In this document: positions 8,528 to 62,835 of the stretch, one piece after another
Layout of the letters: each line of letters begins with the position of its first letter
Numbering within the stretch: the first letter of the stretch is position 1
Virus record (IMG/VR): IMGVR_UViG_3300031251_000005
Coordinates: 1 to 64,000 of that record
Strand: one strand, 5' to 3'
DNA length: 64,000 bases
Source: a virus
Notes under the pieces: model-generated
What the model was told of the DNA's origin: nothing
Database searches by the model: none
Seen by the model: the letters and a program-made list of their open reading frames with translations, nothing else
Position numbers and translations under genes: made by a program

Positions 8528-8557
8528 AGGAGAGTAGGGGATATCCCCTACTCTCCT
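8528..8557 (+). terminator. Rho-independent terminator (perfect 30-bp palindrome + T run)
   Basis: aggagagtaggggatatcccctactctcct followed by ttttt. Confidence 0.85.
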
Positions 8558-23358: not shown

Positions 23359-23393
23359 ATTGATACTACTAGCATTACGCTAGTAGTATCAAT
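23359..23393 (+). terminator. Terminator hairpin, near-identical to 62688-62722
   Basis: attgatactactagc-attac-gctagtagtatcaat. Confidence 0.8.
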
Positions 23394-23401
23394 ATTACCC
23401 C

Positions 23402-23507
23402 TATTTTTTAAAGATTCTAATTTTTTGAAGATATATATTATTGTTGTAGTATTAGAATAGTATTGCATTATTCTAATCTTTTTAAATTAAATAGGAGTAA
23501 GAACATG
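23402..23507 (+). repeat. Leader repeat copy 1 (promoter + hairpin + RBS)
   Basis: tattttttaaagattctaattttttgaagatatatattattgttgtagtattagaatagtattgcattattctaatctttttaaattaaataggagtaagaacATG. Confidence 0.9.
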
Positions 23508-24364: not shown

Positions 24365-24396
24365 GTAGATGGATACGCATATGCGTATCCATCTAC
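24365..24396 (+). terminator. Perfect 32-bp palindrome terminator (duplicated at 25331-25362)
   Basis: gtagatggatacgcat|atgcgtatccatctac followed by a T-rich tail. Confidence 0.85.
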
Positions 24397-24410
24397 TATT
24401 TATTATCTTT

Positions 24411-24516
24411 TATTTTTTAAAGATTTGAATTTTTTGAAGATATATATTATTGTTGTAGTATTAGAATAGTATTGCATTATTCTAATCTTTTTAAATTAAA
24501 TAGGAGTAAGAACATG
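24411..24516 (+). repeat. Leader repeat copy 2
   Basis: Near-identical to 23402-23507. Confidence 0.9.
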
Positions 24517-25330: not shown

Positions 25331-25362
25331 GTAGATGGATACGCATATGCGTATCCATCTAC
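25331..25362 (+). terminator. Perfect 32-bp palindrome terminator
   Basis: Identical to 24365-24396, including the downstream tail. Confidence 0.85.
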
Positions 25363-36610: not shown

Positions 36611-36640
36611 ATATACTAGGTGCATTTGCACCTAGTATAT
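36611..36640 (+). terminator. Hairpin after the portal gene
   Basis: atatactaggtgca-tt-tgcacctagtatat. Confidence 0.75.
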
Positions 36641-36644
36641 GACC

Positions 36645-36750
36645 TATTTTTTAAAGATTCTAATTTTTTGAATATATATATAATAGAAATGGTATTAGAA
36701 TAGTATTGCATTATTCTAATCTTTTTAAATTAAATAGGAGTATTAAAATG
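36645..36750 (+). repeat. Leader repeat copy 3
   Basis: tattttttaaagattctaattttttgaatatatatataatagaaatggtattagaatagtattgcattattctaatctttttaaattaaataggagtattaaaATG. Confidence 0.9.
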
Positions 36751-37463: not shown

Positions 37464-37497
37464 CATAGATACTAGGACAATTGTCCTAGTATCTATG
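37464..37497. terminator. Perfect 34-bp palindrome
   Basis: catagatactaggacaa|ttgtcctagtatctatg. Confidence 0.8.
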
Positions 37498-53660: not shown

Positions 53661-53696
53661 ATAGATACTATAGGCACTAGTGCCTATAGTATCTAT
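53661..53696. terminator. Perfect 36-bp palindrome
   Basis: atagatactataggcact|agtgcctatagtatctat. Confidence 0.8.
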
Positions 53697-56666: not shown

Positions 56667-57496
56667 GGTTTATATCCCTAGGTATAGTTTTAGCTGATAA
56701 AAATGACAATAGCCCCTTTGCTTTAGTAATGCCAAAAGAACATCTCCCTTTTCATGAGGGAGATGTGACTGCTGATATTACTACTATTAATAGAACAGGT
56801 ATAGATATAGATGGTAATGCCTATTCTATTAATCTACAAAAAGGATTAGGTGTAAAAGCAAAGTGGTATGGTAATGGAAATCGTAGGACTGCACCTAATG
56901 TAGTAAAAGGTGAGGAAGTAGAATTATATGAAATAAATAACACAGGCATTTATCTATGGAAGGAAATAGGTAATGATAATCACCTACGTAGACAGGAAGC
57001 TGTCACATGGGCTTTTAGAGCCTCATCAGCTCCAGTGGATACAGATATACCACCTACAGCTGATGATTGCTATACAGCAACTGTAGATGGCAAAAACGGC
57101 CATATTACAATAGCTACCTCTACCAATAATCAAGAGAGAGCAAAATATACAGCGCAATTAAACGGCAGAGATGGCCATCTCACCCTATCAGATAACAAAG
57201 GTAATCTAATCCAAATAGATTCTGAAACTGGCACAATAGTAGCTCTTAATAACTCTGGCAGCCATGTATCTATCCAAGGTACAGAGATAACAGCTCAAGC
57301 TAAAGATACTATCACTATTATTTCTACTAATGTAAATATAATAGCAAACACTACTACTATCTCAGGTGATGTAATAATACAAAAGTCATTAACTGTAGAT
57401 GGTGAATCTAATCTAAAAGGAAATATATCTGGTAATAATGCTAATATTACTAATGTAACTACACAAAATCTATCAGCAGCTAATAATCCAATTTAA
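56642..57496 (+). CDS. Baseplate central spike protein (phiKZ gp164-like)
   Basis: KAKW...NRRTAPNVVKGE.V OB-like N-terminus and a beta-strand-repeat C-terminus. Confidence 0.65.
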   Translation: MPENNSNLRFISLGIVLADKNDNSPFALVMPKEHLPFHEGDVTADITTINRTGIDIDGNAYSINLQKGLGVKAKWYGNGNRRTAPNVVKGEEVELYEINNTGIYLWKEIGNDNHLRRQEAVTWAFRASSAPVDTDIPPTADDCYTATVDGKNGHITIATSTNNQERAKYTAQLNGRDGHLTLSDNKGNLIQIDSETGTIVALNNSGSHVSIQGTEITAQAKDTITIISTNVNIIANTTTISGDVIIQKSLTVDGESNLKGNISGNNANITNVTTQNLSAANNPI

Positions 57497-57498
57497 TA

Positions 57499-57882
57499 AT
57501 GAATAAAGAAAAACAAGATATACTAAATCAATTAGAGGAATATAAGTTACTAAAACCGGAGTGGTATAACTCTAATACCATCAAACCCACTATAAACAAC
57601 ATTACCTCAATCATCTCTATAATTAATACTATTCCAGAAAATTATAATTATCCAAAACTAATGATATCTGGACCTAATAGTCAAATAGGTTTGTATTATG
57701 ATATTCCAGCTAATCTTTATATAGATATAGAGCTAGAAGAAAATAATACTATATCTATCTTTAAGAAGAACTATATAACAAATAAACAAACCTATATAGA
57801 TAACATTAAGATAGATGATCTTACTATAGACTGGTATAAAGATAATCTACCTGAGTTAAGTAAAGATATATTAATAATATAA
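57499..57882 (+). CDS. Hypothetical protein
   Basis: 127-aa ORF coupled to the upstream gene. Confidence 0.6.
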   Translation: MNKEKQDILNQLEEYKLLKPEWYNSNTIKPTINNITSIISIINTIPENYNYPKLMISGPNSQIGLYYDIPANLYIDIELEENNTISIFKKNYITNKQTYIDNIKIDDLTIDWYKDNLPELSKDILII

Positions 57883-57899
57883 TCAAATAACAAACATAG

Positions 57900-57938
57900 A
57901 CTATACTAGGAGAGCATTATTAGCTCTCCTAGTATAGT
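57900..57938 (+). terminator. Hairpin terminator
   Basis: actatactaggagagc-attatta-gctctcctagtatagt. Confidence 0.75.
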
Positions 57939-57939
57939 A

Positions 57940-58900
57940 TTACCACTTTTTCATTTTCAGCTCTCTATCACAATATATTACAGAATTTTTTATATTTAAT
58001 TCTATCTCTCTATATATACTATTGTTTTCTCTTATATATTAACTATAATGTTTTACTATATATAGTTTTGTTATCTTACTATATATAAACTATTATTACT
58101 TACATATATAGTTCATTATAATAACATTTATTAATAAAGGAGATTATAGAGGACTTAAGTCCTCTATAATACTTAGTTATATTTATTTTAAAGGAGACTA
58201 TATAATACATTAGTATTATATAGTACTATCTACTAGTAATGAACTATGTCATTACTAAAGGAGAGAGTAGAGGACTTAAGTCCTCTACTCTAGTATTATA
58301 TCTTGTTTATATATAAACATATATTTAATTAATTAAAATAAGAACCCCCTGGAGGAGTGGGGGTTAGTTTGACATAAAATAATGGATAATAAATATTTTT
58401 TTATTTAAATATTGAATCTGGATTCAGACTGTACATTAAAGAATATCGGCCTTCGTGGGCCGATATATTCATTTGTAGAAAAAATCACTCCGTAATTTTT
58501 TGAAAAGGAATACCCAAACAAGTTGTGTATGCTTTTGGATTATTTTTTTTGGGGTGCCCTCCAAAAAAAATTTAAATAAGGAGGTGGGGGTTCCCCCCAC
58601 ACCATTTTAATTACAAAAAATAAGAAACACAAGTATTTTTTTATTTAAATTGATTTTTTAACAGTTTACTAGTTAAAAAATTTATTAGTTTTTAATAGTA
58701 AAATTAAGAAAAAACTTATAAAAGAAAGAAAAACATAGAAGAAAATATCTCCACTAAATACGGTTAGGTAGTTAGTGGAGATATATTGAGAAACTAATTA
58801 CTGGAAGTTAGATTGAATAGTTTTACTATGATTACACACAAAAACACAGATAAGAGAAAGATTTAATATCGCGCATTTTTTTGGCGCGATTCTAATTGAT
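57940..58900. other. Structured non-coding locus (candidate replication origin and/or ncRNA)
   Basis: No ORF of 60 aa or more; at least 10 hairpins, repeated AAGGAG-hairpin units, a 17-bp direct repeat and a strand-composition flip. Confidence 0.5.
58136..58291 (+). repeat. Three AAAGGAG + 12-bp stem / 4-nt loop units
   Basis: Stems at 58143-58170, 58197-58224 and 58264-58291, each directly after AAAGGAG. Confidence 0.85.
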
Positions 58901-58938
58901 TGGTAAATTTCCATTATATGCTTATATTGGAAATAAAT

Positions 58939-58958
58939 GAATACATATATTATTTAAA
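58939..58958 (+). promoter_or_regulatory. Putative early promoter for dcd
   Basis: gaatacatatattattt shares aatacatatattattt with the site near 25396. Confidence 0.45.
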
Positions 58959-59018
58959 TGCTGAGAAAGACTGTGATGCTAATTTAATTTAAATAGGAAA
59001 AAAGAAGGGAAATGTATA

Positions 59019-59585
59019 ATGTCAATTTTAATAGATAGTCAAATAAAAGAATTGTGTATAATTAAGAATATGATAACACCATTTATTGATCAACCTGTTA
59101 GAGAGGTAAATGGTAAGAAAGTATTGTCATATGGGTTGAGTTCAGCTGGTTATGATGTGCGTATTGGTGATGAGTTTAAGATATTTACTAATATTAATTC
59201 AACAGTAATTGATCCATTAAACTTTGATGAAAGGTGCTTACACAGTTTTAAAGGTGAAGTTTGTGTTATACCACCACATAGTTATGTATTAGCTGTGACA
59301 TTAGAGTACTTTCATATCCCTAGGGATATAATGGTGGTGTGTTTAGGAAAGAGTACATTGGCTAGAGCTGGGTTAATAGTAAATGTTACACCTATTGAGC
59401 CTGAGTTTGAAGGTACTGTGGTTATAGAGATAGCTAATACAGCGCCATTACCTGCTATCATTAGGGCTAATGAAGGTGTTGCACAGTTTCTTTTCTTTAA
59501 AGCTACACAAGAGTGTGAGATGTCTTATTTAGATAAGAAAGGTAAGTACCAAGGTCAAATTGGTATGACTTATGCTAAAGGTTGA
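59019..59585 (+). CDS. dcd: dCTP deaminase
   Basis: [21 protein letters not shown]...[18 protein letters not shown] and KGKYQGQ motifs. Confidence 0.93.
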
Positions 59586-59775
59586 CGTTATAATGAGATC
59601 AATTAAAAAATTCATAGTTTACATCTTACTTTAACAAACTATTTTGATAGAGATATCTATTATTAGGTATGTATTAATAATATTTTTGGTAAGCCACTGA
59701 ATTCTATGCATAGTAATATTGATACTAGTGTTTATAATGTTATTAGCACAAAACCAATTAAATAGGAATTTAAAA

Positions 59776-60231
59776 ATGAAACAAACAATAGAAGAAAGAA
59801 GAAAAGAGTGTGGTAATAAAATAAAGGAATTTAGATTAGAGAGGGGATATAATCAAGTTGACTTTGGTAAAGCTTTGGGTTATAGCAATGTCTATCTATC
59901 TGTAATAGAGAATGGGCAACGTAGATTACCTAGGGTTATCTGTGATAGAATAAAAATAACCTTTGGGTTAGACTTATCTAATTACTTAGAGGAAATGGAT
60001 AAAGATGCTAATTTAACCCCTATGGGTAAATTAATCTTTAAGATTATAGCTGATAAAAAATTAGATGAGGAAACATTAGCTAAAGAGCTAAACACTCCAT
60101 GTGCAGTAATAAGAGCTATATTGTACAATATCAATGAAAAAGATGTAGCTATTAAATTACAAAGAAAGTTTCCTGAATACATAGAAGAGACTAAAGAATC
60201 TCTTAAGTATCTACAACCTAGTAAAGCATAG
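59776..60231 (+). CDS. XRE-family helix-turn-helix protein
   Basis: IKEFRLERGYNQVDFGKALGYSNVYLSVIENGQRR; ATG 59776 behind TAGGA. Confidence 0.8.
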   Translation: MKQTIEERRKECGNKIKEFRLERGYNQVDFGKALGYSNVYLSVIENGQRRLPRVICDRIKITFGLDLSNYLEEMDKDANLTPMGKLIFKIIADKKLDEETLAKELNTPCAVIRAILYNINEKDVAIKLQRKFPEYIEETKESLKYLQPSKA

Positions 60232-60320
60232 GGGTTTAAATGACAGTAACTATCTTTATTATCTTTAAAACTAAACAAATTGGAAAATTAAATAACTGAA
60301 GTAGTTAACAACTAGTATTA

Positions 60321-60350
60321 ATAGAGAGTAGCCAATTGGCTACTCTCTAT
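60321..60350. terminator. Perfect 30-bp palindrome
   Basis: atagagagtagccaa|ttggctactctctat. Confidence 0.78.
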
Positions 60351-60417
60351 AGTTTATTCTCTTTTTATTTTTTATTAAGTATTTCAATAGTATGTTATTA
60401 CTAATTGGATACCTATA

Positions 60418-62687: not shown

Positions 62688-62722
62688 ATTGATACTACTA
62701 GCATTGCGCTAGTAGTATCAAT
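62688..62722 (+). terminator. Terminator hairpin near-identical to 23359-23393
   Basis: attgatactactagc-attgc-gctagtagtatcaat followed by attaccc. Confidence 0.8.
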
Positions 62723-62730
62723 ATTACCCA

Positions 62731-62835
62731 TATTTTTAAAGATTAGAATTATTTGAATATATATATAATAGAAATGGTATTAGAATAGTATTGCATTATT
62801 CTAATCTTTTTAAATTAAATAGGAGTAAGAACATG
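62731..62835 (+). repeat. Leader repeat copy 4
   Basis: tatttttaaagattagaattatttgaatatatatataatagaaatggtattagaatagtattgcattattctaatctttttaaattaaataggagtaagaacATG. Confidence 0.9.

Follow-up and report, generated by a model that had tools for sequence, protein, structure and literature searches.

Shine-Dalgarno-like boxes fused to perfect hairpins in the largest gene-free stretch of a jumbo soil phage contig

In Bacillus, binding of the ribosome to a strong Shine-Dalgarno (SD) sequence stabilises RNA without translation, as described in passages of two papers (PMC7509114, PMC12970973) that cite Agaisse and Lereclus 1996 and Hue et al. 1995 for this effect. The elements described there are STAB-SD, in the cry3A leader of Bacillus thuringiensis, and a polypurine 5' stabiliser of the Bacillus phage SP82 (PMC12970973, PMC7509114). 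In the giant (jumbo) phage phiKZ, the mapped terminators are described as a conserved stem-loop followed by TTAT, a design present at 61 of the mapped termination sites (PMC10914365), and terminators of this type are also reported for 201phi2-1 (PMC11512511). Here we describe an array in which parts resembling both kinds of element are joined, with AGGAG-containing boxes that each abut a perfect hairpin (units U1 to U4). It lies in positions 1 to 64,000 of IMG/VR record IMGVR_UViG_3300031251_000005, a stretch that we call the window and that forms the start of a viral contig of 87,976 bp (30% G+C) from an uncultivated jumbo soil phage.

Like STAB-SD and the SP82 stabiliser, as far as these sources describe them, the array carries strong SD-like sequences that head no open reading frame (ORF) in a system with SD-dependent initiation, and the block to RNases by the 30S ribosomal subunit proposed for those elements needs no start codon. 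The AAAGGAG box is predicted to be complementary to the 16S rRNA 3' tail, and no start codon follows it. The known elements, however, are described as single and in the 5' leader of a defined gene, with a measured effect, whereas the array has three to four copies and no obvious cargo gene; an ACTATG stands 8 nt before the U3 box, and the next gene is 730 nt off with an early promoter of its own. With phiKZ-type terminators the array shares the stable perfect hairpin, and the class to which its hairpins belong lies between genes and has sense tails rich in TTAT[GT] and T runs. It differs from them in being three tandem units without a gene in front (no ORF of at least 30 aa ends before U1-U3 on either strand), in that U1-U3 are long, AT-rich and mostly loop-less palindromes where phiKZ-type terminators have short GC stems, and in the invariant SD or anti-SD box that abuts each of its hairpins.

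The anatomy of the units is regular (Table 1). In U1-U3 the box abuts a fully paired 12-bp stem at zero spacing, and the stem is closed by a 4-nt loop. The conserved box, TAAAGGAGA, spans 9 nt and has the same sequence in the three units; in U1, T58135 and A58143 extend AAAGGAG to this full length. U1 and U3 are perfect palindromes because their loop, TTAA, is self-complementary. Their inner 20 nt are identical, the two copies being 121 bp apart, and their outer three pairs are swapped as a block on both arms, while the stem of U2 differs from that of U1 at four pairs, every one of them compensated. The three copies are 74-82% alike, with the differences in the stems and with diverging flanks, and the U2 arm is similar to the core of the 23-nt repeat found upstream.

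The sequence-only reading of this DNA had described three AAAGGAG units with a 12-bp stem, a 4-nt loop and compensated differences, and this description held: 36 of 36 pair cells are Watson-Crick, 6 of the 12 stem pairs change on both sides (seven cells), no pair changes on one side only, G-U pairs are absent, and the observed pairing or covariation score was reached by none of 500 shuffles. The 211-nt array stretch folds at -67.5 kcal/mol on the plus strand (z = -7.2, with none of 200 shuffles as good) and at z = -8.1 on the minus strand. The AAGGAG-hairpin at 58578-58600 (U4) and the 9-bp hairpin at 58234-58257, also listed by that reading, are both real. Nor does any unit head an ORF, again as it had stated: no plus-strand ORF of at least 30 aa starts in 58136-58330, direct reading of the sequence found no ATG, GTG or TTG 4-12 nt past the U1-U3 boxes and no mini-ORF common to the three units, and no ORF stands behind any of the four.

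AAAGGAG occurs 13 times in the window, three of them in the array. In the 88-kb contig, AGGAG is found 0-2 nt 5' of a perfect hairpin of at least 7 bp at 5 of 204 such hairpins; four of these five juxtapositions fall at 58136-58600, within 470 nt, all on the plus strand and at offset 0, and the fifth is a weak AT-only stem within a gene. The 220 kb of the nearest reachable relative (IMG/VR record G001, 33% G+C, 75% complete) contain one weak juxtaposition of this kind. The special feature of the array is the zero-spacing fusion of box and hairpin. Moreover, none of the 9 box positions varies among the three copies, against differences at 3-4 of the 12 pairs in the stems, and we take an invariant box beside variable stems as the best sign of constraint. 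Stem compensation counts for less: palindrome correction can restore the symmetry of a palindrome at the DNA level, and, since the stems hold no G-U pairs and the loops are palindromic, their symmetry could also be kept in this way. The difference between U1 and U3 looks like one block event. The array is real and statistically unusual, and apparently a unique fusion of two ordinary parts.

The first of these parts is the box. Ribosome sites of the contig's genes are AGGAG-type, 6-9 nt before ATG, and mostly TAGGAG. In the relative there are 13 TAAAGGAGA sites, 3 of which are followed by ATG after 5-8 nt, and judged by this placement TAAAGGAGA is a genuine ribosome-site sequence in the lineage.

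The second part is the hairpin. The sequence-only reading had concluded that the structure is under selection, which is borne out in part: the compensation is real, but perfect hairpins occur genome-wide. Those with a stem of at least 12 bp number 37 in the contig (23 of them loop-less palindromes, and 31 outside ORFs, although ORFs cover 87% of the contig DNA) and 59 in the relative (36 loop-less, 55 outside ORFs), against 0-2 in shuffled sequences. About 60% of the class are loop-less, with centres such as CTAG, TTAA and ATAT, a symmetry that is unexplained because an RNA hairpin needs no self-complementary loop. The intergenic members mostly follow stop codons and have purine-rich, TAGAG-type 5' arms and T-rich sense tails; in the relative the tails run 2-4 nt, then TATG, then a T run. 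Of the 50 hairpins that lie between tandem genes, 15 have TTAT[GT] within the first 10 nt of the sense tail and 5 within the first 10 nt of the antisense flank. By these features the class hairpins resemble the phiKZ terminator design. Fixed geometry and full pairing are the usual look of the lineage's terminator-type hairpins, so the hairpins of the array are not private to it. In a covariance model of U1-U3 the units score 62-67 bits and the next full-length matches 25-33 bits; these next-best matches are generic gene-end palindromes of the relative, and generic class members carry no CUCC/AGGAG box.

The array is probably a small non-coding RNA device. Our preferred reading, held tentatively, is that the units are plus-strand RNA modules whose box binds 30S without initiation, either protecting the RNA or titrating 30S; transcription, the strand read, 30S binding and the effect on RNA stability are all points that we infer. 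Short non-coding transcripts, or one long leader, would be made from the plus strand and would carry the modules, each with two parts: a single-stranded strong SD box, UAAAGGAGA, and, at zero spacing, a very stable hairpin of the lineage's transcription-terminator type. As there is no start codon and a hairpin stands in its place, the box could pair with the 16S 3' tail and hold 30S without initiation. The bound 30S and the hairpin would then block 5'-to-3' and endonucleolytic decay; alternatively, the RNA would serve as a decoy, with 30S subunits or an SD-binding factor as its target. The genes flanking the array and all 12 early promoters of the contig are on the plus strand, which speaks for this reading, as does the ACTATG before the U3 box: it occupies 58243-58248, in the plus-strand loop of the hairpin at 58234-58257, and is possibly a late-type start signal. 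A non-coding RNA with SD-like motifs was also one option of the sequence-only reading, and it remains the lead. The form of that option in which the RNA is a sponge for CsrA is weak: of about seven GGA motifs, a single one is in a hairpin loop.

Several observations weigh against the plus-strand modules. They would be a stabiliser without obvious cargo, because the next plus-strand gene, at the distance given above, is separated from them by several hairpins and has its own promoter. By the matrix no early promoter precedes the array, the only site in the gap being that at 58943. STAB-SD elements, as the sources describe them, are single and not fused to a hairpin, whereas the array has three to four fused copies. 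None of the database searches found a homologue of the array, and there are no RNA runs among those listed for the stretch. The plus-strand boxes are only moderately open, with an unpaired probability of 0.34-0.59. Finally, the tails of the hairpins in the gene-free gap around the array point the other way. Of 11 gap hairpins, 3 have a TTAT[GT] tail on the minus strand (U1, U4 and the hairpin at 58344-58366) and none has one on the plus strand, TAT[GT] is found at 6 of 11 on the minus strand versus 1 of 11 on the plus strand, and a tail matrix, which is a weak classifier (leave-one-out accuracy 39 of 50), favours the minus strand at 9 of the 10 hairpins within the gap, with only the boundary hairpin at 57900 assigned to the plus strand. 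Within U1-U3 alone TAT[GT] is tied at one for each strand (U3 plus, U1 minus), U2 has neither motif, and TTAT[GT] follows U1 only, on the minus strand. Over the whole gap, the balance of the tail tests is towards the minus strand. The folding energies are no guide to the strand that is read, with differences of 3-9 kcal/mol either way.

A reading from the minus strand is doubtful too, and nearly as likely as the plus-strand modules. Each unit would then be a terminator-type hairpin followed by a pyrimidine tail, CUCCUUUA, and the array would be either a terminator row shielding the convergent baseplate operon, or a set of 3' ends of small RNAs with a free anti-SD tail, which would resemble the 16S rRNA 3' end and could pair with ribosome-binding sites. 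The tail counts just given are in its favour, with TTATT found on the minus strand only at U1, U4 and 58344-58366, and the lineage's terminator tails, of the TTAT[GT]/TATG type, likewise sit 3' of a variable perfect hairpin. At U4 the minus-strand tail is TTATT and a T run, and the plus-strand tail is a run of four T. A TTCTATG at 58740 points into the gap, and the minus-strand CUCC boxes are somewhat more open than those of the plus strand (unpaired probability 0.51-0.77). On the other hand, no minus-strand gene is nearby, the 12 early promoters identified are all plus-strand ones, U2 and U3 have no TTAT[GT] tail, the tail classifier is weak, and TTCTATG occurs 17 times outside intergenic DNA. 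Moreover, since generic terminators have no CUCC, termination alone leaves the invariant box unexplained.

It is less likely that the array is a functionless by-product, a piece made of a ribosome site and a terminator hairpin that was duplicated in a fast-changing accessory block, its arms kept symmetric by palindrome correction (template switching within the hairpin) and not by selection. U1 and U3 are clear duplicates, sharing the box and the inner 20 nt and with flanks that are partly alike, and the swap of a 3-nt block on both arms fits a single templated event. The relative lacks the block in which they lie, 57499-60417, and has small membrane ORFs in its place; repeated promoter-hairpin-leader cassettes elsewhere in the contig show that such pieces do move. 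Against a by-product, the chance that 9 of 9 box positions were kept at the divergence of the stems is a few percent by a rough estimate, an unrelated fourth hairpin (U4) carries the same box at zero spacing, and the stems have no decay of any kind.

A replication-origin element, which the sequence-only reading had also offered, is weakly upheld by the tandem repeat and improbable overall. The 23-nt repeats would be iterons, and the palindromes would extrude or bind a dimer. Directly upstream of U1 there are 4.5 direct repeats with a period of 23 nt (about two helical turns), that is, at least three phased direct repeats of about 20 bp; the U2 arm is like the repeat core, U1 and U3 are loop-less perfect palindromes, and the gap is the contig's largest gene-free stretch, with a local minimum of GC skew near 58.0-58.2 kb. 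Iteron-type origins are known from plasmids and lambdoid phages, and the locus is like them in having about five direct repeats of about 22 bp beside inverted repeats in an AT-rich, gene-free stretch. It differs in that no initiator-like gene was identified among the gap neighbours, the gap has no DnaA-box match (27 in the window versus 24 expected), and the repeat core, TATATATA, is of low complexity. The unit spacings of 54 and 67 bp are out of helical phase. The skew dip, judged on a contig that is about 31% of the genome, is local and like another at 60.2-60.8 kb, and skew over the 64 kb follows gene orientation. Loop-less palindromes are found genome-wide and so are not origin-specific, and an origin would leave the box unexplained.

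Least probable is that the 20-bp palindromes in U1 and U3 are operators for a dimeric protein, such as the XRE-family (HTH_3) protein encoded at 59719-60231: the exact palindrome does occur twice, 121 bp apart, but the sites are not at the XRE gene's own promoter, another gene lies between, the stems of U2 and U4 differ while the box stays the same, and the palindromes fit the genome-wide class.

Other identities were tried and rejected. N4-type hairpin promoters have a 5-7-bp stem and a 3-nt loop and serve a single-subunit virion RNA polymerase (RNAP). The stems here are 12 bp and the loops 4 nt, and the relative encodes an RNAP beta-like piece of the multisubunit type; the promoter option of the sequence-only reading is not borne out, the early motif of the contig being AT-rich, linear and AR9-like, with none preceding the array. 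CRISPR-like repeats and RNA anti-CRISPR units are near-identical repeats of 28-37 nt with short stems, whereas the array copies are only 74-82% alike, differ in their stems, and have stems of 12 bp. CsrA/RsmA sponge RNAs (CsrB/RsmZ) present many GGA motifs in hairpin loops. The array resembles them in having several GGA motifs between and on hairpins in a non-coding stretch, but its stems are far longer than sponge stems, GGA is in the loop of only one hairpin (58344-58366), and there is no Rfam match. A comparison can also be made with the promoter-early stem-loop (PeSL) cassettes of T4-type phages, which flank ORFs and carry an early promoter. Like them, the array is made of repeated hairpin pieces in a hyperplastic, lineage-specific region, and the contig has such cassettes elsewhere; unlike them, it has neither ORFs nor an early promoter.

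As summarised in Table 1, the gap around the array holds further elements. GGAG occurs eight times on its plus strand, where about one is expected from composition by simple arithmetic. The tandem repeat upstream of U1 can also be read with a 46-nt period (2.3 copies, 79% matches, score 124) and ends 16 nt before U1; its TATATATA boxes score at most 2.1 on the early-promoter matrix. The hairpin at 57900-57938 may work both ways, its tail being T-rich on the plus strand and of the TATG type on the minus strand. In the GC-rich hairpin at 58344-58366 the loop motif has an unpaired probability of 0.99-1.00, and the minus strand alone has a terminator-type tail, TTATT. Two exact copies of a 17-nt repeat stand 240 nt apart (58394-58410 and 58634-58650), and on the minus strand each copy is about 30 nt upstream of a GC-rich, CUCC-exposing hairpin (58344-58366 and 58584-58600); the two pairs of repeat and hairpin could be two small paralogous minus-strand units.

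Table 1. Coordinates of the array units and of other features in the window and contig
Feature	Position	Strand	Description
U1	58136-58170	+	Box AAAGGAG 58136-58142, hairpin 58143-58170; perfect 28-nt palindrome
U2	58190-58224	+	Box 58190-58196, hairpin 58197-58224; 12-bp stem, 4-nt loop ATTA
U3	58257-58291	+	Box 58257-58263, hairpin 58264-58291; perfect 28-nt palindrome
U4	58578-58600	+	AAGGAG at zero spacing; unrelated stem (7 bp, GC-rich), 3-nt loop
Hairpin between U2 and U3	58234-58257		9-bp stem, 6-nt loop
Gene-free gap	57883-59018		1,136 nt; largest gene-free stretch of the contig
Terminator-class hairpin	57900-57938		16-bp stem, 7-nt loop; directly after the 127-aa ORF
Tandem direct repeat	58005-58119		Period 23 nt, 3.6-4.5 copies, TATATATA core
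GC-rich hairpin	58344-58366	-	9-nt loop exposing GGAGGAG (plus) or CUCCUCC (minus)
TTCTATG	58734-58740	-	Candidate late-type promoter, leftwards into the gap; directly follows the 13-bp hairpin 58746-58785
AR9-like early promoter core	58943-58953	+	Precedes dcd; right end of the gap; not serving the array
dCTP deaminase gene (dcd)	59019-59585	+	
XRE-family (HTH_3) protein gene	59719-60231		About 1.4 kb downstream of the array
Hairpins of the genome-wide class, examples	8528-8557, 24365-24396, 37464-37497, 53661-53696, 60321-60350		Gene-end hairpins in the window
Early-promoter sites, window	17081, 23431, 24440, 25399, 36674, 58943, 62759	+	
Early-promoter sites, contig	64281, 65397, 66397, 77023, 80806	+	
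TTCTATG before genes	28296, 48959, 50274, 59702	+	14-90 nt upstream of starts

The neighbours of the gap encode a baseplate protein, a 127-aa ORF without a family match, dCTP deaminase and the XRE-type helix-turn-helix (HTH) protein, and all the genes flanking it are on the plus strand. The block 57499-60417, which comprises the 127-aa ORF, the gap, and the dCTP deaminase and XRE genes, has no counterpart in the relative although the two genomes are syntenic on both sides of the gap (SbcC-like protein 40%, baseplate protein 43%, 287-aa protein 42%); at the same place (L001 10820-11550) the relative has three small membrane-like ORFs. A further set of small ORFs lies between its SbcC-like and baseplate genes. 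By this comparison the block is a fast-changing part of the jumbo-phage genome.

Searches for relatives of the array and for known families gave little. At gathering scores, Rfam had no match in the whole window, and at E of at most 10 the gap gave only sub-threshold matches (12.7-23.4 bits against cut-offs of 37-88). A blastn search of 57400-59100 against 50,697 phage records returned nothing, three exact or IUPAC array patterns had no match each in viral contigs, and two such patterns had none in genome contigs. The 16-base stem pattern was found in 97 stretches of metagenome contigs, all of them unrelated single hairpins in varied contexts, and the only ones near AAGGAG (L040/L041) sit inside an ORF. 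A covariance-model search in related phages had been proposed as a check on the sequence-only reading; run with U1-U3 over the contig and the relative (309,642 bases), it brought no further member. The 58 viral loci with a dCTP deaminase relative contain no array of note, and a search for coding relics, in which the gap was compared with the relative by blastn and tblastn, gave chance-level matches only. The same phage DNA is present in four rhizosphere metagenome DNA runs, across which the gap is invariant but for a C>T at 57097 in one low-depth contig; being near-invariant, the gap yields no covariation data from these runs.

Two promoter motifs were recognised in the contig. The early-promoter motif, a T-rich stretch followed by a ATATATAT[TA]AT core, is AT-rich and linear and has 12 sites, all on the plus strand, which score 21.8-47.6 bits on the matrix against 10.3 for the next best. 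It closely resembles the AR9 early promoter consensus as that source gives it (PMC5312081). TTCTATG occurs 22 times in the contig; five copies are intergenic, four of these before same-strand genes and the fifth at 58740 on the minus strand, and 17 are outside intergenic DNA. The motif is a putative late promoter resembling the TATG type of phiKZ. Two of the four gene-front sites share a longer context.

Some promoters and terminators are themselves repeated. Identical or near-identical terminator hairpins form the pairs 23359-23393 / 62688-62722 and 24365-24396 / 25331-25362, and promoter-hairpin-leader cassettes of about 105 nt stand before unrelated genes at 23395-23500, 24400-24510, 36640-36745 and 62725-62830, with a 50-nt core that is invariant across the four aligned copies. 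A T-arm-like GGTTCAATTCC in a GC-richer stretch at about 64170-64250 of the contig has the look of a partial tRNA; ARAGORN calls none in the window or in 63.9-83.9 kb, the GGTTCAATTCC stretch included.

By its virion proteins the contig, about 31% complete according to CheckV, is placed among the phiKZ/AR9-like jumbo phages. An 847-aa structural protein matched 282 jumbo-phage records at 27-29% identity, and PHROGs assigns a major head protein of phiKZ size together with baseplate and SbcC-like proteins. The relative, the sole viral locus recovered, has a baseplate protein 43% identical to that of the contig; it also encodes an RNAP beta-like piece of the multisubunit type. A HMMER search of 1.8 billion representative proteins gave 1,362 matches, the closest of them 47% identical, and a word-level search with the baseplate protein found no homologue.

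Jumbo phages run their own transcription, and the mapping of their small RNAs has only begun. To our knowledge, phiKZ and 201phi2-1 have a handful of small-RNA candidates each, with no known function. What the array combines anew are known parts, a terminator hairpin and a non-initiating SD sequence. On a wider and speculative view, which we regard as unlikely though worth stating, the phage makes mini-RNAs of a stable hairpin and a ribosome-docking sequence that act on translation as a whole. Read from the minus strand, such an RNA would end in a hairpin with a CUCCUUUA tail that mimics the 16S 3' end, and would mask host-type AAAGGAG sites while sparing the phage's own, mostly TAGGAG, sites; read from the plus strand, it would be a decoy without a start codon that parks 30S subunits. 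If this were true, it would be an RNA-based route for a jumbo phage to bias translation.

If the units are functional RNAs, a terminator hairpin and a ribosome-binding sequence have been re-used by the phage as a new device, aimed at the step at which ribosome and mRNA dock or at RNA survival. A module so compact, whose biochemical partner is clear (the 16S 3' tail or SD sequences), would be directly testable, and could serve as a portable RNA-stabilising or terminator part. If the array is instead a relic, it records the way in which pieces of this kind are duplicated within a hyperplastic block of such a genome.

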